Of a stretch of DNA of 64,000 nucleotides, positions 1 through 59,687 are shown piece after piece; the stretch's first letter is position 1, and each line of letters opens with the position of its first letter. The stretch comes from Escherichia coli. Its GTDB lineage: Bacteria > Pseudomonadota > Gammaproteobacteria > Enterobacterales > Enterobacteriaceae. The position numbers were made by a program, and so were the translations under genes. Under the pieces are notes generated by a model that was not told the DNA's origin, did not search any database, and saw only the letters and a list, made by a program, of their open reading frames with translations. The stretch is from assembly GCF_003991155.1 (NCBI RefSeq), contig NZ_CP031293.1. One strand, 5' to 3'.

Positions 1-94
1 TGCCTTGCTCGATATAGCGATCCGCTTCGCGGCGTGAGCAAATTCCGCTTTCGCTGATGTATTTATTTAAACGGACTGATGAGTCGGGCAGCAT
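1..94 (-). CDS. rluF: 23S rRNA pseudouridine synthase RluF, N-terminal ~31 codons only (gene continues beyond window start)
   Basis: Reverse complement of 1-94 reads [31 protein letters not shown], matching the RluF N-terminus; absent from ORF track because truncated. Confidence 0.75.
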
Positions 95-441
95 AAATTC
101 TCCTGTAAAACGCGGAATATACCGTACCTCTTAGCGGGGAAAAACAGGGTTATGCGGCAACGTCGAAATTAAATGTGATCTGCCACGCCTTTTATCACAA
201 AAGTGTCTCCGGAAGTACGATGCAAATTTGCCTGGCAAAATAAGGATAATCAACATATTACGAATCGCTGCACACCTGTGCTGATGACTACTACGCAGAG
301 AAACAAATGTGCAAGAGAAAGCGCTATTTCTCCCCATGCAAAGAGTGAAAAATCGCTTTGAAAGGCCATCATGATGGGGTTATATCAGATCAAGCGGTGA
401 GAAAGCGTATTTGCACAAATGTGCAGAACCAGGAGGCGGCA

Positions 442-1389
442 ATGGAAAACAGTGACGATATCCGTTTGATTGTGAAGATTGCCCAACTCTATTACGAACA
501 GGATATGACGCAGGCGCAAATCGCGTGCGAACTGGGTATTTACCGCACCACCATCAGCCGCTTGCTTAAACGAGGCCGCGATCAGGGAATTGTCACCATC
601 GCCATCAACTATGACTACAACGAAAATCTCTGGCTGGAGCAGCAACTGAAGCAAAAGTTTGGCCTGAAAGACGTTGTGGTGGTGTCGGGAAATGATGAGG
701 ATGAAGAGACTCAACTGGCGATGATGGGGTTACACGGCGCGCAACTGCTGGATCGCTTGCTGGAGCCTGGCGATATTGTCGGTTTTTCCTGGGGTCGCGC
801 GGTGAGCGCACTGGTTGAAAACTTGCCGCAGGCGGGGCAATCGCGGCAGTTAATCTGCATACCAATTATTGGCGGCCCGTCCGGTAAACTCGAAAGCCGC
901 TATCATGTAAACACATTAACCTACAGCGCGGCAGCGAAGTTGAAAGGGGAATCGCATCTCGCGGATTTTCCGGCTCTACTGGATAACCCCTTAATTCGTA
1001 ATGGGATCATGCAGTCTCAGCACTTTAAAACCATCTCTGCCTACTGGGATAATCTGGATGTCGCCCTGGTGGGAATTGGCTCACCGGCCATTCGCGACGG
1101 CGCTAACTGGCATGCGTTTTATGGTGGTGAAGAGAGTGACGACCTGAATGCCCGCCAGGTTGCTGGCGATATTTGCTCGCGCTTTTTTGATATTCACGGC
1201 GCAATGGTTGAAACGAATATGAGCGAAAAAACACTCTCTATCGAAATGAATAAATTAAAGCAGGCACGATATTCCATTGGCATTGCCATGAGTGAAGAAA
1301 AATACAGCGGAATTGTTGGTGCACTGCGTGGAAAATATATTAATTGTCTGGTAACGAATAGCAGCACAGCTGAACTATTACTGAAATAA
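442..1389 (+). CDS. sorC: SorC-family transcriptional regulator of the L-sorbose operon
   Basis: ORF 358-1389; preferred start ATG 442 (MENSDDIRLIVKIAQ) preceded by AGGAGG; N-terminal HTH plus sugar-phosphate-binding domain; first gene of the sorCDFBAME order. Confidence 0.75.
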   Translation: MENSDDIRLIVKIAQLYYEQDMTQAQIACELGIYRTTISRLLKRGRDQGIVTIAINYDYNENLWLEQQLKQKFGLKDVVVVSGNDEDEETQLAMMGLHGAQLLDRLLEPGDIVGFSWGRAVSALVENLPQAGQSRQLICIPIIGGPSGKLESRYHVNTLTYSAAAKLKGESHLADFPALLDNPLIRNGIMQSQHFKTISAYWDNLDVALVGIGSPAIRDGANWHAFYGGEESDDLNARQVAGDICSRFFDIHGAMVETNMSEKTLSIEMNKLKQARYSIGIAMSEEKYSGIVGALRGKYINCLVTNSSTAELLLK

Positions 1390-1458
1390 AAATCTTCCCG
1401 ATGTTTACCGTAATAAAAATTACGGCGGGTCCCTATTATCTAAAATCAGGAGTCTGTT

Positions 1459-2265
1459 ATGCAAACGTGGTTAAATTTGCAGAATAAAATCATTATTGTC
1501 ACCGGTGGCGCATCCGGCATTGGTCTGGCGATTGTGGATGAATTATTAGCACAAGGCGCGAATGTACAGATGGTCGATATTCACGGTGGCGATGGACAAT
1601 ATGAAGGTCATAAAGGCTATCAGTTTTGGCCGACCGATATTTCCAGCGCCAAAGAGGTAAATCATACGGTAGCAGAAATTATCCAGCGTTTTGGTCGCAT
1701 CGACGGTCTGGTCAATAACGCCGGGGTCAATTTTCCGCGTCTGCTGGTCGATGAGAAAGCGCCTGCCGGGCAGTATGAACTCAACGAAGCGGCATTCGAA
1801 AAAATGGTCAATATCAACCAGAAAGGCGTTTTTCTGATGTCGCAGGCGGTGGCGCGACAGATGGTCAAACAACATGATGGCGTGATTGTGAATGTTTCCT
1901 CAGAAAGTGGGCTGGAAGGCTCAGAAGGCCAAAGCTGTTACGCCGCGACCAAAGCCGCGCTCAATAGCTTCACGCGCTCCTGGTCGAAAGAGCTGGGTAA
2001 GCACGGTATCCGTGTGGTCGGTATCGCGCCGGGGATTCTGGAAAAAACAGGACTGCGCACGCCGGAATATGAAGAAGCGCTGGCTTGGACGCGCAATATC
2101 ACCGTCGAGCAGCTGCGTGAAGGCTATACCAAAAACGCCATTCCTATTGGGCGCGCCGGAAGATTAGCAGAAGTGGCTGATTTTGTTTGTTATCTGCTGT
2201 CTGAACGCGCCAGCTATATCACCGGAGTAACCACTAACATTGCGGGCGGCAAAACGCGCGGCTAA
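1459..2265 (+). CDS. sorD: Short-chain dehydrogenase/reductase, D-glucitol-6-phosphate dehydrogenase SorD-like
   Basis: 268 aa; SDR glycine motif TGGASGIG near N-terminus; SD CAGGAG before ATG; position in sor operon. Confidence 0.75.
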   Translation: MQTWLNLQNKIIIVTGGASGIGLAIVDELLAQGANVQMVDIHGGDGQYEGHKGYQFWPTDISSAKEVNHTVAEIIQRFGRIDGLVNNAGVNFPRLLVDEKAPAGQYELNEAAFEKMVNINQKGVFLMSQAVARQMVKQHDGVIVNVSSESGLEGSEGQSCYAATKAALNSFTRSWSKELGKHGIRVVGIAPGILEKTGLRTPEYEEALAWTRNITVEQLREGYTKNAIPIGRAGRLAEVADFVCYLLSERASYITGVTTNIAGGKTRG

Positions 2266-2274
2266 GGAGGCTTT

Positions 2275-2682
2275 ATGGTCAATGCCATTTTTTGCGCCCA
2301 CGGCAAATTAGCCTGCGCCATGCTGGAATCGGTTCAGATGGTGTACGGCGATGCCAGGGTCGAGGCAGTTGAATTTGTGCCCGGCGAGAACGCCGGAGAC
2401 ATTGTGGCAAAGCTGGAGAAGTTAGTGAGCATTCACAATCATGACGAGTGGCTAATCGCCGTGGATTTACAGTGCGGCAGCCCGTGGAATGCGGCAGCGG
2501 TGCTTGCGATGCGCAATCCTCGTCTGCGGGTAATCAGCGGCCTTTCACTGCCGCTGGCGCTCGAACTGGTTGATAACCAGGACAGCATGAATGTTGATGA
2601 ACTGTGTGAACACCTGACGCAAATCGCAAAGCAATCCTGCGTCGTCTGGAGACAGGTGGCAACGGCAGAGGAGGATTTCTGA
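2275..2682 (+). CDS. sorF: PTS mannose-family EIIA component (sorbose-specific)
   Basis: 135 aa; EIIA-Man-like N-terminus (MVNAIFCAHGKLA); SD AAGGAGG; operon position. Confidence 0.8.
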   Translation: MVNAIFCAHGKLACAMLESVQMVYGDARVEAVEFVPGENAGDIVAKLEKLVSIHNHDEWLIAVDLQCGSPWNAAAVLAMRNPRLRVISGLSLPLALELVDNQDSMNVDELCEHLTQIAKQSCVVWRQVATAEEDF

Positions 2683-3176
2683 TGAACATTACGCTCGCCC
2701 GCATTGATGACCGCCTGATCCACGGTCAGGTCACTACCGTCTGGTCGAAAGTGGCTAACGCCCAGCGCATTATTATCTGCAATGACGAAGTTTATAACGA
2801 TGAAGTTCGCCGGACATTATTGCGTCAGGCTGCGCCACCGGGAATGAAGGTTAACGTGGTCAATATTGAAAAAGCCGTCGCGGTTTATCACAACCCGCAA
2901 TATCAGGACGAAACCGTTTTTTATCTTTTCACTCGCCCACAGGATGCCTTAGCGATGGTTCGCCAGGGGGTAAAAATAGGTACCCTGAATATTGGCGGTA
3001 TGGCCTGGCGTCCTGGTAAAAAACAGTTAACCAAAGCAGTTTCATTAGATGACGATGATATTAACGCATTTCATGAGTTAAATAATCTTGGCGTCATACT
3101 GGATTTACGCGTCGTAGCGTCAGATCCCTCAATCAATATTATCGACAAAATAAACGAACAGTTAATCGCAAATTAA
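2682..3176 (+). CDS. sorB: PTS mannose-family EIIB component (sorbose-specific)
   Basis: 164 aa; EIIB-Man motif RIDDRLIHGQV with phospho-His; start overlaps sorF stop (TGATG). Confidence 0.8.
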   Translation: MNITLARIDDRLIHGQVTTVWSKVANAQRIIICNDEVYNDEVRRTLLRQAAPPGMKVNVVNIEKAVAVYHNPQYQDETVFYLFTRPQDALAMVRQGVKIGTLNIGGMAWRPGKKQLTKAVSLDDDDINAFHELNNLGVILDLRVVASDPSINIIDKINEQLIAN

Positions 3177-3241
3177 ATAATAGCGCCTGTGTACATATGC
3201 TTTAACAGGCAGGGATGACGACACTTAAAAGGTGACAAATC

Positions 3242-4039
3242 ATGGAAATAAGTACCCTACAAATTATTGCTATATTTCTTTTTTCCTGTATTGCCGGAAT
3301 GGGCAGCGTGCTGGATGAATTTCAGACTCATCGTCCGTTAATTGCCTGTACGGTGATTGGTTTAATTCTCGGTGATTTAAAAACCGGAATTATGCTCGGT
3401 GGTACGCTGGAATTGATAGCTCTCGGCTGGATGAACGTCGGCGCGGCGCAATCTCCGGATTCTGCACTCGCCAGCATAATCTCCGCCATTCTGGTTATCG
3501 TTGGTCAGCAAAGCATCGCCACCGGAATCGCCATCGCGTTGCCTGTGGCTGCGGCAGGCCAGGTGCTAACGGTGTTTGCCCGTACCATCACCGTAGTGTT
3601 CCAGCACGCGGCGGATAAAGCAGCGGAAGAAGCACGGTTTCGCACTCTCGATATTCTGCATGTCTCCGCGCTTGGCGTGCAGGCACTGCGCGTTGCTATT
3701 CCGGCACTGATTGTCTCGCTGTTCGTCAGCGCCGATATGGTGAGCAATATGCTGAGCGCCATTCCCGAATTTGTGACCCGTGGACTGCAGATTGCTGGCG
3801 GTTTTATCGTGGTGGTCGGTTACGCCATGGTGCTTCGCATGATGGGCGTGAAATATTTGATGCCTTTCTTTTTCCTCGGTTTCCTCGCAGGTGGCTACCT
3901 CGATCTCAGTCTGCTGGCGTTCGGTGGCGTCGGCGTGATCATGGCCCTGCTCTACATCCAGTTAAATCCACAGTGGCGTAAAGCTGAACCACATCCCCAG
4001 ACCACCACTATCACCGCCCTTGACCAACTTGATGATTAA
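3242..4039 (+). CDS. sorA: PTS mannose-family EIIC membrane component (sorbose-specific)
   Basis: 265 aa, highly hydrophobic multi-TM protein; operon position. Confidence 0.8.
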   Translation: MEISTLQIIAIFLFSCIAGMGSVLDEFQTHRPLIACTVIGLILGDLKTGIMLGGTLELIALGWMNVGAAQSPDSALASIISAILVIVGQQSIATGIAIALPVAAAGQVLTVFARTITVVFQHAADKAAEEARFRTLDILHVSALGVQALRVAIPALIVSLFVSADMVSNMLSAIPEFVTRGLQIAGGFIVVVGYAMVLRMMGVKYLMPFFFLGFLAGGYLDLSLLAFGGVGVIMALLYIQLNPQWRKAEPHPQTTTITALDQLDD

Positions 4040-4049
4040 CGGAGCCATC

Positions 4050-4874
4050 ATGGAACAGAGAAAAATTACACGCAGCGATCTGGTGAGCATGTTTCTGCGC
4101 TCCAACCTGCAACAGGCATCCTTTAACTTTGAACGTATTCACGGGCTGGGTTTTTGCTACGACATGATCCCCGCCATCAAACGACTTTACCCATTAAAAG
4201 AGGATCAGGTTGCGGCGCTCAGGCGACACCTGGTGTTCTTCAATACCACGCCAGCCGTATGTGGCCCGGTCATCGGCGTCACTGCCGCCATGGAAGAGGC
4301 GCGAGCCAACGGCGCGGAAATTGATGACGGTACCATTAACGGCATCAAAGTAGGTCTGATGGGACCATTGGCAGGAGTTGGCGATCCACTGGTCTGGGGA
4401 ACGCTGCGCCCGATTACCGCCGCGCTCGGCGCATCTCTGGCACTTTCGGGCAACATTCTCGGCCCCCTGCTGTTCTTCTTTATTTTCAATGCAGTACGTC
4501 TGGCAATGAAATGGTATGGGCTGCAACTGGGCTTTCGTAAAGGGGTGAATATCGTCAGCGATATGGGCGGTAATTTGCTGCAAAAACTGACCGAAGGCGC
4601 GTCGATTCTCGGGCTGTTTGTAATGGGCGTACTGGTGACCAAATGGACATCGATCAACGTGCCGTTAGTGGTTTCACAAACGCCTGCCGCCGATGGTGCC
4701 ACCGTCACTATGACCGTACAGAACATTCTCGACCAGCTTTGCCCTGGATTGCTGGCGCTCGGTTTGACGCTGCTGATGGTACGTCTGCTCAACAAAAAAA
4801 TTAACCCGGTATGGCTGATTTTCGCCCTGTTTGGTTTAGGGATTATCGGTAATGCGCTGGGCTTCCTGTCCTGA
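4050..4874 (+). CDS. sorM: PTS mannose-family EIID membrane component (sorbose-specific)
   Basis: ORF 4020-4874; preferred start ATG 4050 (MEQRKITRSDL) after ACGGAG; EIID-like hydrophobic protein. Confidence 0.8.
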   Translation: MEQRKITRSDLVSMFLRSNLQQASFNFERIHGLGFCYDMIPAIKRLYPLKEDQVAALRRHLVFFNTTPAVCGPVIGVTAAMEEARANGAEIDDGTINGIKVGLMGPLAGVGDPLVWGTLRPITAALGASLALSGNILGPLLFFFIFNAVRLAMKWYGLQLGFRKGVNIVSDMGGNLLQKLTEGASILGLFVMGVLVTKWTSINVPLVVSQTPAADGATVTMTVQNILDQLCPGLLALGLTLLMVRLLNKKINPVWLIFALFGLGIIGNALGFLS

Positions 4875-4925
4875 TTCTTCGCCCCGGCGCAACCGTCGGG
4901 GCCATCGTTCAACATGAGGTGGTTT

Positions 4926-6155
4926 ATGAAAACAACAGCTCTGCGTCTTTATGGTAAACGTGATTTACGCCTGGAAACCTTTGACCTTCCTGAAATGCAG
5001 GAGGATGAAATCCTCGCAACGGTGGTCACTGACAGCCTGTGCCTCTCTTCCTGGAAAGAGGCCAATCTGGGGGAAAACCATAAAAAAGTACCCGACGATG
5101 TGGCGACCAATCCCATCATCATCGGCCACGAATTTTGCGGCGATATTCTGGCCGTGGGTAAAAAGTGGCAGCACAAATTCCAGCCGGGTCAGCGTTATGT
5201 GATTCAGGCCAACCTGCAACTCCCCGACCGCCCGGACTGCCCCGGCTACTCCTTCCCGTGGGTAGGCGGCGAAGCGACGCATGTGGTTATTCCCAACGAG
5301 GTCATGGAACAAGATTGCCTGCTGGCATACGACGGCGAAACCTATTTTGAAGGCTCGCTGGTTGAACCGCTTTCCTGCGTGATTGGCGCGTTCAACGCCA
5401 ACTATCATCTTCAGGAAGGTAGTTATAACCACACGATGGGGATTCGCCCGCAAGGGCGCACGCTGATCCTCGGCGGCACCGGACCAATGGGACTGTTGGC
5501 GATTGATTATGCGCTACATGGACCCGTTAACCCTTCGCTGCTCGTCATTACCGATACCGACAACGACAAATTGAGTTATGCGCGCAAGCACTATCCATCA
5601 GAACCGCAAACACTGATTCATTATCTCAATGCCACCGATGCAGCATTTGATACGTTAATGGCGCTGAGTGGCGGTCACGGCTTCGATGATATTTTCGTCT
5701 TTGTGCCTAATGAAGGACTGGTGACTCTCGCCTCTTCCTTGCTGGCGACAGATGGTTGCCTGAATTTCTTCGCCGGACCGCAGGATAAGCACTTCAGCGC
5801 GCCAATTAATTTCTACGATGTGCATTATGCATTTACCCACTACGTAGGCACGTCAGGCGGCAATACCGACGACATGCGCGCAGCGGTCAAATTGATTGAA
5901 GAGAAAAAAGTGCAGGCCGCAAAAGTGGTAACACATATTCTTGGGCTGAATGCCGCGGGCGAAACCACGCTTGAATTGCCTGCCGTCGGCGGCGGGAAAA
6001 AACTGGTGTATACCGGGAAATATCTGCCGCTGACATCACTCACGCAGATTCAGGATGAAGAACTGGCGGCGATTCTGGCGCGTCATCAGGGAGTCTGGTC
6101 CGGCGAGGCGGAGCAGTACCTGCTCGCCCATGCAGAGGCGATTTCCCATGATTAA
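4926..6155 (+). CDS. sorE: L-sorbose-1-phosphate reductase, Zn-dependent alcohol dehydrogenase (MDR) family
   Basis: ORF 4914-6155; preferred start ATG 4926 after GAGGTGG; MDR-type motifs (GHEFCG; GGTGPMG nucleotide-binding loop); last sor gene. Confidence 0.7.
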   Translation: MKTTALRLYGKRDLRLETFDLPEMQEDEILATVVTDSLCLSSWKEANLGENHKKVPDDVATNPIIIGHEFCGDILAVGKKWQHKFQPGQRYVIQANLQLPDRPDCPGYSFPWVGGEATHVVIPNEVMEQDCLLAYDGETYFEGSLVEPLSCVIGAFNANYHLQEGSYNHTMGIRPQGRTLILGGTGPMGLLAIDYALHGPVNPSLLVITDTDNDKLSYARKHYPSEPQTLIHYLNATDAAFDTLMALSGGHGFDDIFVFVPNEGLVTLASSLLATDGCLNFFAGPQDKHFSAPINFYDVHYAFTHYVGTSGGNTDDMRAAVKLIEEKKVQAAKVVTHILGLNAAGETTLELPAVGGGKKLVYTGKYLPLTSLTQIQDEELAAILARHQGVWSGEAEQYLLAHAEAISHD

Positions 6156-6960
6156 TCGCGATACTCAACTCTGCATGTCGCTGGCCGGCTGCCCCGGTAA
6201 CTTCGGCACGCGTTTTCACAATTATCTTTATGAAAAGCTGGGGCTGAATTTCATCTATAAAGCGTTCACCACCCAGGATATTGCAGCGGCGGTGAAAGGG
6301 GTTCGCGCGTTGGGTATTCGCGGTTGCGCTGTGTCGATGCCGTTTAAAGAAAGCTGCATGCCTTTTCTCGACGCGATCGATCCGTCGGCGAAGGTCATTG
6401 ATTCCGTGAATACCATCGTGAATGACGACGGCAGGCTGACCGGGTTTAACACCGACTATATCGCGGTGAAAAGCCTGATTACCCACCACCAGCTCAATAC
6501 CACCACGCGAGTGATGATTCGCGGCAGTGGCGGCATGGGCAAAGCGGTGATTGCCGCCTTTCGCGACGCGGGGTTTACGGATGTTATCATTGCCGCCCGC
6601 AACCGCGAGAGCGGCCCGGCGCTGGCGAAGCAGTATGGGTTTCAGTGGCAACCGCAGCCGGAAGGCATCGCCTGCGACATTCTGGTCAACGTGACGCCCG
6701 TTGGCATGAGCGGCGGTAAAGAGAGCCATGAGCTGGCCTTCAGCGAAGCGATGGTCTCAACGGCAAGCGTCGTTTTTGATGTCGTGGCCTTGCCGCCGGA
6801 AACGCCGCTCATTCGCCTGGCGCAACGGCTTGATAAGCAGACGATTAGCGGTGCGGAGGTGATTGCTTTACAGGCCGTCGAGCAGTTCGCAATGTATACC
6901 GGCGTACGGCCTGATGCGCAACTGATTGCTGAGGCGGCACAATTTGCACGAGAAGGATAA
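6148..6960 (+). CDS. Shikimate 5-dehydrogenase-like (AroE/YdiB family) NAD(P)-dependent dehydrogenase, function in this context unknown
   Basis: ORF 6055-6960; preferred start ATG 6148 overlapping sorE stop (ATGATTAA); AroE-like motifs SMPFK and NTDY, glycine-rich GSGGMGKA. Confidence 0.6.
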   Translation: MINRDTQLCMSLAGCPGNFGTRFHNYLYEKLGLNFIYKAFTTQDIAAAVKGVRALGIRGCAVSMPFKESCMPFLDAIDPSAKVIDSVNTIVNDDGRLTGFNTDYIAVKSLITHHQLNTTTRVMIRGSGGMGKAVIAAFRDAGFTDVIIAARNRESGPALAKQYGFQWQPQPEGIACDILVNVTPVGMSGGKESHELAFSEAMVSTASVVFDVVALPPETPLIRLAQRLDKQTISGAEVIALQAVEQFAMYTGVRPDAQLIAEAAQFAREG

Positions 6961-7082
6961 GAAACATCAGCGCCTTGTTTGCCACGCCAGAAGCAATGCG
7001 CAACATCGTGAGCCATGTCAGTAAGCGGTTAAAATCACAGTGGTAGCATGGCTCCCGTGATTTCTTACTAACCGGAGAAGTA

Positions 7083-7772
7083 ATGGAACTGCTTTTATTG
7101 AGTAACTCGACGCTGCCGGGTAAAGCCTGGCTGGAACACGCGCTGCCGCTGATTGCTGAACAGTTGCAGGGTCGCCGTTCAGCGGTATTTATTCCTTTCG
7201 CTGGCGTAACGCAGACCTGGGATGATTACACAGCGAAAACGGCTGCGGTTCTCGCTCCGCTGGGTGTTTCTGTCACCGGTATTCATAGCGTTGTCGATCC
7301 CGTTGCCGCGATTGAAAATGCTGAGATCGTGATTGTCGGCGGCGGGAATACTTTCCAGTTGCTGAAACAGTGCCGCGAGCGCGGGCTGCTGGCACCAATT
7401 ACTGACGTGGTGAAACGTGGCGCGCTGTATATTGGCTGGAGCGCAGGCGCTAACCTTGCTTGCCCAACCATTCGTACCACCAACGATATGCCGATTGTCG
7501 ATCCGCAAGGTTTCGATGCGCTGAATCTGTTCCCGTTGCAAATCAACCCGCACTTCACCAACGCGCTGCCGGAAGGCCATAAAGGTGAAACGCGTGAGCA
7601 GCGTATTCGCGAACTGCTGGTCGTCGCGCCAGAACTCACAATTATTGGTCTACCGGAAGGTAACTGGATCACGGTGAGTAAAGGTCACGCTACGCTGGGT
7701 GGCCCGAACACCACTTATGTGTTTAAGGCTGGTGAAGAAGCGGTGCCGCTGGAAGCGGGTCACCGTTTTTAA
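7083..7772 (+). CDS. pepE: Peptidase E (alpha-aspartyl dipeptidase)
   Basis: 229 aa; [14 protein letters not shown]-terminus; SD GGAGAAG; conserved position next to yjbB. Confidence 0.9.
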
Positions 7773-7777
7773 GTGAA

Positions 7778-7852
7778 TTGCCGGATGCATAATCCGGCAT
7801 CTTGTTCATCGTGCCTGATGCGACGCTTTACGCGTCTTATCAGGCCTACAGG
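7778..7852. repeat. REP (repetitive extragenic palindromic) elements
   Basis: gccggatgcataatccggc and gcctgatgcgacgc...atcaggcctaca palindromic units between convergent pepE and yjbB. Confidence 0.7.
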
Positions 7853-7861
7853 GTCACGGTA

Positions 7862-9493
7862 TTAATACTCGTCCCGTCCTTCGTCTTCATCCGGCTGTTC
7901 CAGCACACTGTAAGCCACCGAACAAAACAGCGAGTTCAGACGCTGCATATCTCCCAGTAAGCCTAAATGTAGCGAACTGGTTTCAATGCTTTGCACGTTT
8001 TGCTGATGCAGGCGATCGACGTGAGCATGGGAATAACGGCGATTAAGAATGCGAAAGCGATGCTTGCTGCGGCGCAAACGACGGGCGCTGGTAACATCGC
8101 CAGAGAAGAAAACCGACATTGCCAGTTTTAAATTACTGAGCAATTGCTCATAGAGCGCATCCAGTTCCTTCAAGCCATCAAGCGAAAATGCCCGCCGTGC
8201 TGCCAGCGATTTATCGGCAATTTCGCTCCCCATGCGCTCGACGATATCGGAGGCCTGTTCAAGGTTGAGCGACATTTCGATGATCTCCGCCCAGCGGCGC
8301 GACTCTTCCTCCGCCAGCTCTTCTTTTGGCATCCGCGCCAGATACAGCTTAATGGCGGTATAGAGAACGTTGATATCATCTGCCAGCTTACGCAGCTCTT
8401 TCTCCTGCCGTGGCTCGCCGTGCATCACTTTATTCAGCCCTTCCATCATCTGTTCCATGGCGTCGCCAATGCGCAGGGTTTCGCGCGCGGCGTTCGCCAG
8501 AGCAAGCGTGGGCGTATCCAGCGCGCTGACATCCAGATGTTTGGGTCGTAGCTGGGTATCCAGTTCCGGTTCATCGCGAATAATCGTTTTGCAAAACCGT
8601 GCCATCGGGTCAACAAATGGCAGCATGACCAGGCAGCGTACAAGGTTGTAGAAGACGTGGAAATAGATCACCAGTTCCGCTTTTGGCAGTGGCAACTTCC
8701 CCATTGTCTCTGCCAGCAAATGGACAAACGGCAGGATAATCAGGCTACCCACCAGCTTAAACAGCAGGCTACCCAGCGCGACACGGCGGGCTGCGGCATT
8801 GGCGGCACTGTTGTTGAGCATCGCCAGCAGACCGGAACCGAGGTTAGCACCAATCACCAGACAGAGCGCCACGGGGAAGGAGATAATGCCTGCGGCGGTC
8901 AGAGTCGCGGTCAGCAGTACAGCAGCAAGGCTGGAGTAGCTGATAATGGCGAACATCGCGCCAATCAGCGCATCCAGCAGAATATCGCCGGTCAGCGAGG
9001 CAAAGATCACCTGAACGCCGTTTGCCTGGGTGATCGGCGTTACGGCCTGCACAATCAACTCCAGCGCCAGCAAAATCAGCCCAAGACCAATACCGACGCG
9101 GCCCAGTTGCCCGGCGCGTGACTGTTTGCGTCCGAGGAAAAAAATCACGCCGATAAAAATAAGTAACGGTGACAGCCAGGATAAGTCGAAGGTGAGAATA
9201 CGCGCCATTAGCGCCGTCCCGACATCTGCACCCAGCACAATCACCAGAGCCGGTGCGAGGGCTACCAGATCCTGAGCGACAAACGAGGTCACCAGCATGG
9301 TGGTGGCATTACTGCTCTGCACCAGTGCGGTAACGCCTATCCCCGCGCAAAAGGCGAGCGGCTTCTTTTCGACGCTTCGGCTAAGAACAGTACGCAGACG
9401 CGCGCCGAAGACGCGCATTACGCCGGTTCGAACAATATGAGTCCCCCAGACCAGCAGGGCGACGGCAGAAAGCAGGTGAAGCAAAGTTAGCAC
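7862..9493 (-). CDS. yjbB: Na+/phosphate symporter-like inner membrane protein (PhoU-domain containing)
   Basis: 543 aa; GTG start with GGAGAA upstream; multi-TM N-terminal half plus charged PhoU-like C-terminal half. Confidence 0.85.
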   Translation of the reverse strand: MLTLLHLLSAVALLVWGTHIVRTGVMRVFGARLRTVLSRSVEKKPLAFCAGIGVTALVQSSNATTMLVTSFVAQDLVALAPALVIVLGADVGTALMARILTFDLSWLSPLLIFIGVIFFLGRKQSRAGQLGRVGIGLGLILLALELIVQAVTPITQANGVQVIFASLTGDILLDALIGAMFAIISYSSLAAVLLTATLTAAGIISFPVALCLVIGANLGSGLLAMLNNSAANAAARRVALGSLLFKLVGSLIILPFVHLLAETMGKLPLPKAELVIYFHVFYNLVRCLVMLPFVDPMARFCKTIIRDEPELDTQLRPKHLDVSALDTPTLALANAARETLRIGDAMEQMMEGLNKVMHGEPRQEKELRKLADDINVLYTAIKLYLARMPKEELAEEESRRWAEIIEMSLNLEQASDIVERMGSEIADKSLAARRAFSLDGLKELDALYEQLLSNLKLAMSVFFSGDVTSARRLRRSKHRFRILNRRYSHAHVDRLHQQNVQSIETSSLHLGLLGDMQRLNSLFCSVAYSVLEQPDEDEGRDEY

Positions 9494-9663
9494 GGAATCA
9501 GGTTCTCCTTTTTGTTATGCATTTTCCTGTTAAGATTTTTCTAATCACGTTATTTTTATCCAGGCATTTCTCTTGTATGTACTTTCAGTATAAGAGATTT
9601 ATACAAGAAAGCATTTAAAAAGGCATTTATATAAAAATCCACCTGTATCTGTTGCTATTTCTG

Positions 9664-10113
9664 TCACACTTTCCCCTGTCGTTTACACCAGATAATCGTT
9701 GTCACTTTTGTGACCTCTGAGAAGATAAACAACGAAATATTTAAGACCAGATCCTGTGAATGAAAATAATTAAGTAACAACGGTATTACGGAGATTGAAC
9801 AGCTTACGGTAGCAAAACGCATAAACTCCTGAATCGCCAAAAAAGAGAAACTAAATAATTCTTGTCTTAAAAAACATTGCGCAGAAAAGAATAAAGAGAA
9901 CAATAATACTATTTGTAGCGTAACAGTGGCGACTGCATAAGCGTAAAAACCGCCTTCAACACCGATATCCTTAAGTAAAGAAAGTGAATGAACGATATCG
10001 GAATAAAAAGGGATACGACCATTACCAAGCGAGTAGAACAAATATGTGGCTATCGCGATAACATCCATGACACCCCAAAAAAGAAGAATGTATTTTTTAT
10101 ATTGACGTTGCAT
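9664..10113 (-). CDS. Small hydrophobic membrane protein, unknown function (accessory)
   Basis: 149 aa; ATG start with AAAGGA upstream; about 4 predicted TM segments; AT-rich codon usage unlike flanking core genes. Confidence 0.4.
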   Translation of the reverse strand: MQRQYKKYILLFWGVMDVIAIATYLFYSLGNGRIPFYSDIVHSLSLLKDIGVEGGFYAYAVATVTLQIVLLFSLFFSAQCFLRQELFSFSFLAIQEFMRFATVSCSISVIPLLLNYFHSQDLVLNISLFIFSEVTKVTTIIWCKRQGKV

Positions 10114-10155
10114 AAAGTAAATCCTTTTTACGAAAACAAATATTACCAGGAATTA

Positions 10156-10476
10156 TTATAATTGCGGGCGTTTTTGGATTAACACTCCACCCGTATTTTT
10201 AAAAATCCTGTCAGCCATACCTTCACTAAACAAGACATCGATACGCCCTTTACTTTTATCGTGATACAGAATACTGCATGAGATACACCTTATACCCTCT
10301 TTGGATTTACGAAAATCTAACCAAAAACGACCATCATAAAAGACCCACTCCACACCTGTTTTTATATTAATTATCCAATCATTATAACCTGTTGGTTTTT
10401 TTCCTAATAGTTCAGTAACTTCGGACTCTGAACATCCTTCGAAAGCAAAAAAATCTATTTCATCGATTTTTATCAT
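10156..10476 (-). CDS. Small soluble protein, unknown function (accessory)
   Basis: ORF 10156-10482 opens on TTG; preferred ATG at 10476 (MIKIDEIDFF); Trp/Phe-rich; AT-rich; no strong SD. Confidence 0.35.
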   Translation of the reverse strand: MIKIDEIDFFAFEGCSESEVTELLGKKPTGYNDWIINIKTGVEWVFYDGRFWLDFRKSKEGIRCISCSILYHDKSKGRIDVLFSEGMADRIFKNTGGVLIQKRPQL

Positions 10477-10502
10477 GTTCAATAATCCATTATTTATGAC
10501 AT

Positions 10503-10530
10503 TAAAAACCGGGGCAAATACCCCGGTGTT
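10503..10530 (-). terminator. Rho-independent terminator of metH
   Basis: Minus-strand hairpin CCGGGGTATTTGCCCCGG followed by TTTTTAATG immediately after metH stop. Confidence 0.7.
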
Positions 10531-10535
10531 ATCAC

Positions 10536-14219
<3,684 letters not shown>

Positions 14220-16989: not shown

Positions 16990-17165
16990 GCCCTCATCAG
17001 GAGCAGAGAATTGCCGGATGCGGCGTAAACGCCTTATCCAGCCTACGTTCGGCAACGGTTGTAGGCATGATAAGACGCGCAAGCGTCGCATCAGGCATCG
17101 TGCACCGATTGCCGGATGCGGCGTAAATGCCTTATCCGGCCTACAGTCAGCAACGTTTGTAGGTT
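16990..17165. repeat. BIME/REP cluster between aceA and aceK
   Basis: Two copies of gccggatgcggcgtaaacgccttatccggcctac-type palindromic units. Confidence 0.75.
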
Positions 17166-22023: not shown

Positions 22024-22143
22024 ATGCCTGGCAGTTCCCTACTCTCGCATGGGGAGACCCCACACTACCATCGGCGCTACGGCGTTTCACTTCTGAGTTC
22101 GGCATGGGGTCAGGTGGGACCACCGCGCTAAGGCCGCCAGGCA
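22024..22143 (-). rRNA. rrfE: 5S ribosomal RNA
   Basis: Reverse complement matches the E. coli 5S sequence (UGCCUGGCGGCC...GGGAACUGCCAGGCAU) with one difference near position 13 (U instead of G). Confidence 0.95.
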
Positions 22144-22235
22144 AATTCTGTTTATCAGACCGCTTCTGCGTTCTGATTTAATCTGTATCAGGCTGAAAAT
22201 CTTCTCTCAATCCGCCAAAACACCTTCGGCGTTGT

Positions 22236-25142
<2,907 letters not shown>

Positions 25143-25325
25143 CACAACCCGAAGATGTTTCACTTCAGAGTTGCGAAAATTTGAGAGACTCACGAACAAC
25201 TTTCGTTGTTCAGTGTTTCAATTTTCAGCTTGATCCAGATTTTTAAAGAGCAAATATCTCAAACATCACCCGAAGATGAGTTTTGAGATATTAAGGCAGG
25301 TGACTTTCACTCACAAACCAGCAAG

Positions 25326-25401
25326 TGGCGTCCCCTAGGGGATTCGAACCCCTGTTACCGCCGTGAAAGGGCGGTGTCCTGGGCCTCTAGACGAAGGGGA
25401 C
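25326..25401 (-). tRNA. gltV: tRNA-Glu (UUC) in rRNA spacer
   Basis: Reverse complement is GTCCCCTTCGTCTAGAGGCCCAGGACACCGCCCTTTCACGGCGGTAACAGGGGTTCGAATCCCCTAGGGGACGCCA. Confidence 0.95.
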
Positions 25402-25486
25402 GTATCAGTCTGCTTCGCAAGACGCCTTGCTTTTCACTTTCTATCAGACAATCTGTGTGAGCACTGCAAAGTACGCTTCTTTAAGG

Positions 25487-27028
<1,542 letters not shown>

Positions 27029-38859: not shown

Positions 38860-39050
38860 CGTTTGTGGGGCTAATTTCTTGTCGGAGTGCCTTAACTGGC
38901 TGAGACCGTTTATTCGGGATCCGCGGAACCTGATCAGGCTAATACCTGCGAAGGGAACAAGAGTTAATCTGCTATCGCATCGCCTTTGCGGCGATCGTCT
39001 CTTGCTTCATCCGTCGTCTGACAAGCCACGTCCTTAACTTTTTGGAATGA
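38860..39050 (+). promoter_or_regulatory. TPP riboswitch (THI element) in thiC leader
   Basis: Conserved THI-box elements CTGAGA and AACCTGATCAGGCTAATACCTGCGAAGGGAAC about 100-180 nt upstream of thiC ATG. Confidence 0.85.
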
Positions 39051-59368: not shown

Positions 59369-59687
59369 AGGGTTCCTCAGCTCGCTGACAAGTCGACCCA
59401 TCTGTCCATTGAGCGGACAGTTTGTGCAACACTATTTTGTTGACCGGAAAATGGAACACTTTCCGCAATGCCTGTTGCTATCACGCTTAAACCATTTCAT
59501 TGCGATTTACACAGAACGGACGTCCTGTCGCAGTATATTAAGTCGTCGATAGAAACAAGCATTGAAAGGCACAGCAGTAGTCAAACAGTGTGAAACGCTA
59601 CTGGCGCCTTACAGCGCAAAAAGGCTGGTGACTAAAAAGTCACCAGCCATCAGCCTGATTTCTCAGGCTGCAACCGGAAGGGTTGGC

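Follow-up and report, generated by a model that had tools for sequence, protein, structure and literature searches.

The gene at positions 6148-6960 of the window (the whole 64,000-nucleotide stretch of Escherichia coli contig NZ_CP031293.1 that was analysed, read on the plus strand) is probably sdhL, which closes the L-sorbose operon of enteric bacteria as its conserved final gene (sorCDFBAME-sdhL) and encodes an accessory enzyme of the SdhL (shikimate-dehydrogenase-like) class whose substrate is likely to be something other than shikimate. The gene itself is already known. RefSeq names it “shikimate 5-dehydrogenase” (WP_061092777.1), Prokka names it “sdhL/HI_0607”, and the name sdhL is used by Swiatek et al. 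(2025, mSystems; PMC12817954). The novelty implied by a preliminary description of this DNA therefore does not hold: sdhL is a routine, annotated member of enterobacterial sor operons. What is new here is its linkage to the sor genes in 29 species, the count of its remnants in E. coli, and its retention in Kluyvera and Pluralibacter.

Gene model and operon membership

The reading frame at 6148-6960 (+) encodes a 270-aa protein without an internal stop, and the RefSeq coordinates for the coding sequence are identical. The sdhL start codon (ATG, 6148-6150) sits 5 nt ahead of the TAA (6153-6155) that ends sorE, giving the 8-nt overlap ATGATTAA that the preliminary description had reported. A Shine-Dalgarno-like GAGG at 6135-6138, 9 nt ahead of the ATG, completes a junction that can be read directly from the sequence at 6135-6155 (+). 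An alternative ATG further upstream, at 6055, would lengthen the open reading frame; position 6148 is taken as the true start because all of the homologues compared begin with MIN(R/K)DTQ. That sdhL is real and intact is confirmed. A search for signs of horizontal origin by base composition found an unremarkable GC content.

The seven upstream genes all lie on the plus strand. The first is sorC (442-1389), a RefSeq-annotated gene for a SorC-family regulator with a Pfam Sugar-bind domain and a helix-turn-helix (HTH). It is followed by sorD (1459-2265), for which RefSeq and NCBIfam model NF004817 (499.9 bits) indicate an SDR-type D-glucitol-6-phosphate dehydrogenase. The sorbose PTS components, assigned by profile matches and RefSeq, occupy 2275-4874: sorF (IIA, 2275-2682), sorB (IIB, 2682-3176), sorA (IIC, 3242-4039) and sorM (IID, 4050-4874), with models TIGR00824, TIGR00854, TIGR00822 and TIGR00828 all above cut-off. 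Next comes sorE (4926-6155), encoding L-sorbose-1-phosphate reductase of the Zn-ADH family (RefSeq; Pfam ADH_N and ADH_zinc_N). Downstream of sdhL, and outside the operon, is the flanking core gene pepE (7083-7772, plus strand; Pfam Peptidase_S51; RefSeq), which adjoins rluF in genomes without a sor operon. An Rfam scan of the operon region returned no match.

Is sdhL expressed with the sor genes? The evidence supports its being a co-expressed eighth cistron, as the preliminary description had proposed, because it overlaps sorE, no promoter-like site intervenes, the junction is conserved in 28 species, and co-induction has been published. A promoter scan of positions 1-8000 found a single promoter-like site, inside sorC, and none before sdhL; within sorE and across the sorE-sdhL junction, scanning found neither a promoter-like site nor a strong terminator. 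A separate transcription unit for sdhL was rejected, there being no promoter-like site upstream of the gene. The sdhL-pepE spacer folds into a weak hairpin ahead of pepE (z = -0.7). In an ST648 strain, L-sorbose induces sdhL ~64-fold at both the RNA and the protein level (Swiatek et al. 2025, mSystems; PMC12817954). Specifically, the log2 fold changes for sdhL in strain PBIO730 were +6.01 (RNA) and +6.77 (protein), compared with 5.65-5.67 for sorA, sorF and sorB (PMC12817954). In the explanation favored here, sdhL is transcribed together with the sor genes from a SorC-controlled promoter, and ribosomes would re-initiate at its ATG, within the overlap with the end of sorE. Translational coupling of sorE and sdhL, which we infer from the geometry of the junction, would mean that SdhL is made whenever L-sorbose induces the operon.

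Enzyme class and likely substrate

The preliminary description called the product an AroE/YdiB-family dehydrogenase and proposed a Pfam search. Membership of the wider shikimate dehydrogenase family stands, with matches to Shikimate_dh_N (66 bits) and Shikimate_DH (25.5 bits); the narrower assignment does not. Among the AroE models, TIGR00507 (164.1 vs. a cut-off of 200.2) and NF001319 (242.9 vs. 252) fall short and all others score far lower, and the YdiB models NF009390 (96.2 vs. 349) and NF010631 (78.6 vs. 515) are likewise below cut-off. NCBIfam model NF009202 (PRK12550) matches at 463.8 bits, where the equivalog cut-off is 306 bits, aligning residues 1-268 with profile positions 4-271 of 272. 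Haemophilus influenzae HI0607 (PDB 1NPY) is matched with E=2.5e-111 and is identical at 176 of 268 aligned residues (66%), gap-free. Since the AroE and YdiB models fall under their cut-offs, the family label that the profiles indicate for 6148-6960 should be SdhL, neither AroE nor YdiB, and “shikimate 5-dehydrogenase” is probably an over-annotation.

The likely catalytic residues named in the preliminary description, Lys67 (in SMPFK; codon 6346-6348) and Asp103 (in NTDY; codon 6454-6456), are present in the window and invariant in 16 SdhL sequences. They correspond to the catalytic pair mutagenised in HI0607. Asn88, Gln242 and the GSGGMGKA loop are also present. Judging from the 66% identity to HI0607, which has been crystallised and mutagenised, SdhL would be an NADP(H) oxidoreductase that combines an N-terminal substrate domain with a Rossmann domain binding this cofactor, and Lys67/Asp103 would pass hydride between the cofactor and the substrate, a ketone or a secondary alcohol.

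What might that alcohol or ketone be? In E. coli AroE, the substrate carboxylate is bound by Ser14, Ser16 and Tyr215. In alignments to 1nvt and 2hk7/2hk9, SdhL places N18 and G20 opposite both serines of the Ser-x-Ser motif, and in alignments to 1nvt, 5dzs and 2hk7/2hk9 it places A214 opposite the tyrosine; all three positions are conserved in the SdhL clade. Because the residues that hold the carboxylate in AroE are replaced, shikimate is probably not the true substrate. The most likely physiological substrate would instead be a polyhydroxylated ketone or alcohol, such as a cyclitol or ketose. To our knowledge, reports of activity in the SdhL class are limited to weak shikimate oxidation. Arg22, also invariant in 16 SdhL sequences, was considered as a phosphate-binding residue, which would have indicated a sugar-phosphate substrate; this was rejected, since window Arg22 corresponds to Thr22 in HI0607 and the wider family is variable there.

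Two other readings give SdhL a specific substrate, and neither is favored. It is unlikely that SdhL is, in keeping with its RefSeq name, a second shikimate dehydrogenase, an AroE isozyme for aromatic biosynthesis whose placement among the sor genes is either accidental or a means of boosting shikimate-pathway flux on sorbose. The fold and catalytic dyad common to SdhL and AroE would suit such a role, as would the survival of sdhL without sor catabolic genes in Kluyvera, Pluralibacter and Pasteurellaceae. Singh and colleagues reportedly found in 2005 that HI0607 oxidises shikimate with NADP+, which also fits; the same work is said to have put its shikimate turnover ~1000-fold below that of AroE, with quinate not used, and such a rate counts against an isozyme. 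So do the score for TIGR00507 (164 vs. 200) and those for the other AroE equivalog models, all under cut-off, and the replacement of the carboxylate-binding Ser/Ser/Tyr by Asn/Gly/Ala. Moreover, aroE is already present in these organisms: E. coli and H. influenzae both carry it, and in one locus (L089) a canonical AroE is encoded 5 kb from the SdhL homologue. Also in favor of an isozyme, L-sorbose raises expression of aroL and the trp genes (Swiatek et al.); against it, most E. coli have deleted sdhL.

Slightly less likely again is a dedicated sorbose-regulon enzyme acting on a sorbose-related keto-sugar, with 5-keto-D-fructose (5-KF), the phosphorylated form of 5-KF made by the PTS, and a toxic by-product of sorbose-1-phosphate metabolism as candidates. 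Such an enzyme could, for example, reduce 5-KF or its phosphorylated form to L-sorbose(-1-phosphate) or D-fructose(-phosphate), widening the range of substrates open to the operon. No conserved operonic context other than the sor operon was found for the SdhL class, and L-sorbose co-induces the protein. There is also precedent in the shikimate dehydrogenase (SDH)-family 5-ketofructose reductases (KFRs) of Tatumella and Gluconobacter, with a match to structure 7cok at E=2e-16; Gluconobacter oxidations yield both L-sorbose and 5-KF, and the carboxylate clamp is missing from SdhL. According to Nguyen and colleagues, reportedly in 2021, Asn21 of KFR replaces the first carboxylate-binding serine; Asn18 of SdhL stands at that AroE serine position and, judging by spacing to the catalytic Lys, may correspond to Asn21. 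Nevertheless, SdhL is far nearer to AroE (116 bits) than to the 7cok reductase (63 bits), most sorbose-positive E. coli no longer have sdhL, and purifying selection on it persists in genomes that lack the sorbose PTS and sorD/sorE. In Pasteurellaceae it is a stand-alone core gene with no sor genes within 10 kb. Thus, the sorbose-related substrate suggested in the preliminary description is weakened by these sor-free copies, including those of Kluyvera and Pluralibacter, and by the losses in E. coli. If the keto-sugar proposal were true, it would provide the SdhL class, whose crystal structure dates from 2005, with its first physiological substrate, and the textbook seven-gene sor pathway would gain one reaction.

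Conservation, loss and retention of sdhL

The distribution of sdhL was surveyed in the best 80 of 548 sdhL-positive GTDB species. Within those 80 loci, sdhL directly follows sorE in 29, all enterobacterial, and a complete sorCDFBAME set lies immediately upstream in 29 of the 38 enterobacterial loci with at least 74% identity. The two genes overlap or are separated by a 1-nt gap in 28 of the 29 linked species in this best-80 set. Escherichia, Pseudocitrobacter, Klebsiella and Raoultella share the overlap found in the window, Citrobacter has TAAcATG in its place, and genomes of the K. variicola/pneumoniae complex likewise have sdhL after, and overlapping, sorE. Hence, other genomes' sor operons do carry the gene, a point that the preliminary description had left to be checked. 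With 17 orthologues compared to the window gene, dN/dS is 0.05-0.15 for sdhL (0.03-0.07 for sorE); this purifying selection indicates that sdhL is not a chance open reading frame.

The gene also persists outside sorbose operons. Six Kluyvera species retain only a sorC-like gene and sdhL from the sor locus, and two Pluralibacter retain only sdhL and a 10-20 nt stub of the sorE 3' end; in both genera sdhL is under purifying selection (omega 0.05-0.11). In Pasteurellaceae, sdhL has cysE upstream or trmD-rplS nearby, and no sor genes were found within 10 kb of it. Pseudomonas also has a stand-alone copy. These copies show that the function is independent of sorbose, so the operon context may say little about the substrate. 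A search for a second conserved context, using ORF clusters and Pfam neighbors at the 80 loci as well as distant homologues, gave no functional clue: the remaining contexts are mixed (HAD phosphatase, methyltransferase, LysR, exbBD). A representative-library search extended the family to 33-59% identity, mostly on short contigs.

In E. coli, only 176 of 5426 complete genomes keep an intact sdhL, and 175 of these 176 copies are at least 99% identical. Of the 5426 complete genomes, 2681 are sor-positive with a remnant that has a 701-bp internal deletion. What remains is 58 nt from the start of the gene and 54 nt from its end, with codon 7 now a TAA stop; a BLASTN comparison of S22EC with the window places the segment missing from the common E. 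coli sor locus at 6206-6906 (+), corresponding to codons 20-253. The rarity and near-identity of the intact copies might suggest a lineage-specific insertion, and hence a recent passenger, and the 2025 paper (PMC12817954) describes the gene in ST648 as an ST-specific insertion. Such an insertion is highly improbable and already contradicted by the data: both ends of the gene flank a clean deletion in 2681 E. coli, sdhL has the same position in E. albertii, E. whittamii, Escherichia sp. MOD1, Citrobacter, Klebsiella and Raoultella, and the sor-locus clade of the SdhL tree roughly tracks genera. Because 2681 of 5426 genomes hold the deletion remnant and 176 the intact gene, sdhL is ancestral in the E. 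coli sor locus, and the ST648 state is retention rather than insertion. Equally improbable is the view that sdhL is decaying and without function, a remnant carried along only by co-transcription. Its loss from most E. coli and its dispensability for growth on sorbose would fit, yet the open reading frame is intact, at 269-271 aa, in 78 of the 80 loci (best 80 of 548), the catalytic residues are invariant, dN/dS is 0.05-0.15, and the protein has been detected by proteomics; selection and proteomics already contradict decay.

Is sdhL needed for L-sorbose catabolism? It is not required, given the 2681 sor-positive genomes with the remnant and two published observations: ST131, which lacks an intact copy, grows on L-sorbose, and a seven-gene knock-in suffices for such growth (Swiatek et al. 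2025; PMC12817954). The ST131 result bears out the earlier statement that the canonical pathway needs no such enzyme, and it makes sdhL accessory, because a strain without the intact gene still uses sorbose for growth. Thus, SdhL would not be a step in the route from L-sorbose through sorbose-1-phosphate and glucitol-6-phosphate to fructose-6-phosphate, and would be accessory in a double sense: losable with growth on sorbose kept, and retainable after the sor catabolic genes have gone. Conservation of the junction across genera nonetheless argues for some gain from co-expression with the sor genes, which “accessory” alone leaves unexplained.

What are the implications? First, the enterobacterial sor operon is ancestrally a unit of eight genes, and the supposed ST648-specific insertion is really the survival of a gene now deleted from most of the species. 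Second, the sor operon, as the only conserved and co-regulated SdhL context found here, offers an experimental handle: there are an inducer and a regulator to work with, and thousands of E. coli are natural knock-outs. The value of these results is modest and specialist, concerning comparative genomics of E. coli lineages and annotation; they change no understanding of mechanism.

Comparison with known systems

The closest characterized relative is HI0607 (1NPY), the archetype of the class, which has the same length as the window protein, 66% gap-free identity, Lys67/Asp103, a PxNFGT motif and Ala214. The difference lies in context: its gene follows cysE in Pasteurellaceae, whereas sdhL in the window lies at the end of a PTS sugar operon and is induced by sorbose. 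AroE (EC 1.1.1.25) shares the two-domain fold, the catalytic Lys/Asp, Asn88, Gln242 and a glycine-rich NADP loop. SdhL differs from it in falling under the TIGR00507 and NF0013xx cut-offs and in having Asn-x-Gly and Ala in place of Ser-x-Ser and Tyr. YdiB, the quinate/shikimate dehydrogenase, comes from the same superfamily, with PDB matches to 1npd and 1vi2 at E ~1e-26, but SdhL reaches only 96 bits against the cut-off of 349 for NF009390, and HI0607-type enzymes are not known to use quinate.

The KFRs (7cok from Gluconobacter; TM-KFR from Tatumella) have in common with SdhL the SDH fold, the Lys/Asp mechanism and a pocket that does not bind a carboxylate. They show that enzymes of this fold can use a ketohexose chemically related to L-sorbose; TM-KFR is specific for 5-KF (PMC7954740). 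The 7cok match (63.3 bits, E=2e-16) ranks 19th, below the AroE and YdiB structures, and because it is weaker than that of AroE, SdhL is best placed in a subclass separate from KFR. As for the operon, Wehmeier and Lengeler reportedly described the Klebsiella pneumoniae L-sorbose operon as sorCDFBAME, which matches the seven upstream genes of the window in the same order. That textbook operon has seven genes, whereas K. pneumoniae/variicola genomes and 29 other species add an eighth, sdhL, overlapping sorE.

The last gene of the sor operon

The gene sdhL (6148–6960, + strand; 270 aa when translated from the window) lies in the order rluF, sorC sorD sorF sorB sorA sorM sorE sdhL, pepE, with yjbB and metH on the opposite strand. 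Positions 4900–7100 are 100% identical to E. coli strain 2016C-3878. The sdhL ATG (6148) overlaps the sorE stop codon (6153–6155) in the sequence ATGATTAA, and there is a GAGG motif 9 nt 5' of the ATG. The overlap and protein length given in a preliminary description are confirmed by the sequence and by the RefSeq start. A longer ORF, from 6055, was rejected because all homologues start MIN(R/K)DTQ and RefSeq also begins the gene at 6148.

Is sdhL expressed as part of the operon? A consensus scan found no promoter-like site ahead of sdhL and no convincing terminator between sorE and sdhL. Relatives were sought in one genome per GTDB species, with matches in 548 species; a complete sorCDFBAME lies directly upstream of sdhL in 29 of the best 80 of these 548 loci, which were read. 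The hosts are Pseudocitrobacter, Escherichia albertii, E. whittamii, Escherichia sp., Citrobacter (8 species), the Klebsiella oxytoca group, Raoultella, two Enterobacter sp., one Serratia, and Entomohabitans. Of these 29 loci, 28 share one of two sorE-sdhL junctions, the ATGATT(A/G)A overlap or TAAcATG. The K. pneumoniae/variicola complex shows this eight-gene arrangement too, and sdhL is absent from the sorE-like PTS operons examined in Yersinia and Enterococcus. Swiatek et al. 2025 (mSystems, PMC12817954), who call the gene sdhL and state that, among their six sequence types, only ST648 has it, report in their supplement log2 fold changes for sdhL of +6.01 (transcript) and +6.77 (protein) in the ST648 strain on L-sorbose, and of 5.65–5.67 for sorA, sorF, and sorB. 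Because of the overlap, the scan, the conserved linkage, and the published co-induction, sdhL is a co-expressed eighth cistron of the sor operon, as the preliminary description proposed.

Two ORFs between yjbB and metH, at 9664–10113 (−; hydrophobic, 149 aa) and 10156–10482 (−; 108 aa, frameshifted in S22EC), are RefSeq hypothetical proteins with no Pfam match. Rfam matches elsewhere in the window are all ordinary for this E. coli region: naRNA4 (17064–17141), a complete rrn operon with tRNA and StyR-44 (22026–27028), a TPP riboswitch (38873–38973), and a P26 match (59622–59683).

Loss of sdhL from most E. coli

The 2025 study treated sdhL as an ST-specific insertion (PMC12817954). The sequences point the opposite way. 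Among 5426 complete E. coli genomes, the internal part of sdhL is present in only 176; 175 of these copies are at least 99% identical and one is 91.8% identical. In S22EC, the sorE-pepE spacer keeps the first 58 nt of the gene, with the same start-stop overlap and a TAA at codon 7, as well as the last 54 nt and the downstream spacer; the pieces are joined over a clean 701-bp deletion, equivalent to 6206–6906. This remnant architecture is found, at a query coverage of at least 80%, in 2681 of the 5426 genomes (e.g., Nissle 1917 and NU14). A protein tree groups all sor-locus SdhL copies in a single clade, whose branching roughly tracks the genera. The remnants, this tree, and the occurrence of the gene across the genus Escherichia and beyond it together show that sdhL is ancestral to the sor locus and has been lost by deletion from most E. 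coli.

Downstream of the S22EC remnant, ~180 nt with REP-like sequence (GCCGGATGCG...; L002:8378–8557, from the remnant to the region upstream of pepE) stand in place of 27 nt of the window (6977–7003). Three Pseudocitrobacter loci (L003, L004, and L054; ~4290–10810) encode sorCDFBAME-sdhL proteins 89%–99% identical to those of the window, with a flanking pepE only 86%–87% identical; the dS values are 0.36 (sdhL) and 0.56 (sorE). The eight-gene unit looks to have passed horizontally between Escherichia and Pseudocitrobacter.

Separation from sorbose catabolism

That the seven-gene pathway does not need sdhL, as previously suggested, is borne out by growth: ST131, which lacks an intact sdhL, grows on L-sorbose in minimal medium, and a seven-gene knock-in enables an ST10 strain to do so (PMC12817954). 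The gene also occurs without the pathway. In six Kluyvera species, the rluF-pepE site holds only a sorC-like regulator (70% identity), 20 nt, and then intact sdhL, and two Pluralibacter genomes have sdhL alone with the last 10–20 nt of sorE ahead of it. Purifying selection on sdhL persists in both genera: dN/dS is 0.05–0.09 among the Kluyvera copies and 0.11 for the Pluralibacter pair, compared with 0.05–0.15 for sor-linked sdhL and 0.03–0.07 for sorE. Outside the sor-locus clade, sdhL is a stand-alone gene in unrelated neighborhoods. In 17 Pasteurellaceae loci it starts 10 nt beyond cysE, in Actinobacillus indolicus it follows trmD-rplS, and its neighbors elsewhere include HAD phosphatase, methyltransferase, LysR-regulator, or exbBD genes. 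Because of the growth phenotypes, the retention under selection, and the stand-alone genes, SdhL function and sorbose catabolism can each exist without the other.

Other neighborhoods vary. Escherichia sp. MOD1-EC7003 (L005:8780–10005) and E. albertii NBRC 107761 (L008:1517–2772) have a sorE split over two frames, and E. coli SCPM-O-B-8794 (L006:4068–4870) has a split sorD; sdhL is intact (270 aa) in all three, which are drafts, so the splits are possible sequencing errors. In Serratia silvae (L078:8970–10807), a divergent SdhL (65%) is preceded, ~200 nt upstream, by a SorC-family regulator (55% identical to SorC), and neither PTS nor sorD/sorE genes are near the pair; like Kluyvera, but independently of it, S. 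silvae pairs sdhL with a SorC-like regulator. In Enterobacter soli (L056:991–3971), an SdhL homologue (66% identity) starts ~25 nt after the end of a Cof-type HAD phosphatase and is followed on the same strand by a DUF3748/PD40 protein; in this one genome, a small operon may tie SdhL to a sugar-phosphate phosphatase. On one metagenome contig (L093:581–8441), genes for a GatZ/KbaZ-like protein, a nucleotidyltransferase, a B12/radical-SAM enzyme, and a glycosyltransferase are clustered on one strand with an SdhL-like gene (43% identity), an arrangement that suggests a role for distant relatives in sugar or cyclitol modification. Another (L089:9378–12474) has a DarT and Macro-domain (DarTG-like) pair 2.5 kb, and a canonical three-domain AroE 5 kb, from an SdhL homologue.

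What is new here? SdhL belongs to a known class, and the gene is already annotated (the identical RefSeq protein is WP_061092777.1) and already noticed, both its position beside the sor operon and its induction by sorbose having been published (Swiatek et al. 2025, PMC12817954). Judged by the refuting condition set in the preliminary description, most of the novelty first claimed is lost because sdhL is a routine, already-annotated member of sor operons. What keeps its interest is the sor operon as the one regulatory setting of SdhL that is conserved. Modest additions are the ancestral eight-gene unit, the deletion remnant in most E. coli, and the retention of sdhL in Kluyvera and Pluralibacter without sor catabolic genes.

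Protein class and likely function

Pfam places shikimate dehydrogenase N-terminal and NAD(P)-binding domains in the product. NF009202 (PRK12550) is the sole NCBIfam model above its curated cut-off (463.8 versus 306 bits); the AroE models (TIGR00507, 164 versus 200 bits) and the YdiB model (96 versus 349 bits) fall below theirs. The best solved structure is Haemophilus influenzae HI0607 (1NPY; E=2.5e-111; 66% identity over 268 residues, gap-free), the founding member of the shikimate-dehydrogenase-like (SdhL) class. Because of these matches, the product is an SdhL, neither AroE nor YdiB, and SdhL should replace the original AroE/YdiB-family label.

The Lys of SMPFK and the Asp of NTDY, previously described as retained, are present as Lys67 and Asp103; both are reportedly catalytic in HI0607 by mutagenesis. 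HI0607 is said to oxidize shikimate with NADP+ ~1000-fold more slowly than AroE and, reportedly, does not use quinate. Ser63, Lys67, Asn88, Asp103, and Gln242, the catalytic and ring-hydroxyl-contacting positions, are kept and are invariant in 16 SdhL sequences. In AroE-shikimate complexes, the shikimate carboxylate is held by the serines of a Ser-x-Ser motif and by a Tyr. Asn18 and Gly20 of SdhL stand opposite these serines (alignments to 1nvt and 2hk7/2hk9), and Ala214 stands opposite the conserved Tyr (1nvt, 5dzs, and 2hk7/2hk9). SdhL is very probably active, yet not tuned to shikimate.

We favor, with reasonable though not high confidence, an accessory enzyme of the sor operon that would be translated by coupling to sorE and would act by NADP(H)-dependent hydride transfer, via Lys67 and Asp103, on a substrate that is polyhydroxylated but is not shikimate. 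It is improbable that SdhL is a genuine AroE isozyme, and slightly more so that it is a sorbose-linked keto-sugar reductase. The latter has a precedent in SDH-family 5-ketofructose reductases, such as the Tatumella enzyme that converts 5-keto-D-fructose to D-fructose (PMC7954740), and SdhL matches one of them (PDB 7cok; E=2e-16), but AroE is nearer. A lineage-specific insertion is contradicted by the remnants, and a decaying gene by the selection and proteomics data; we give both very little credence.
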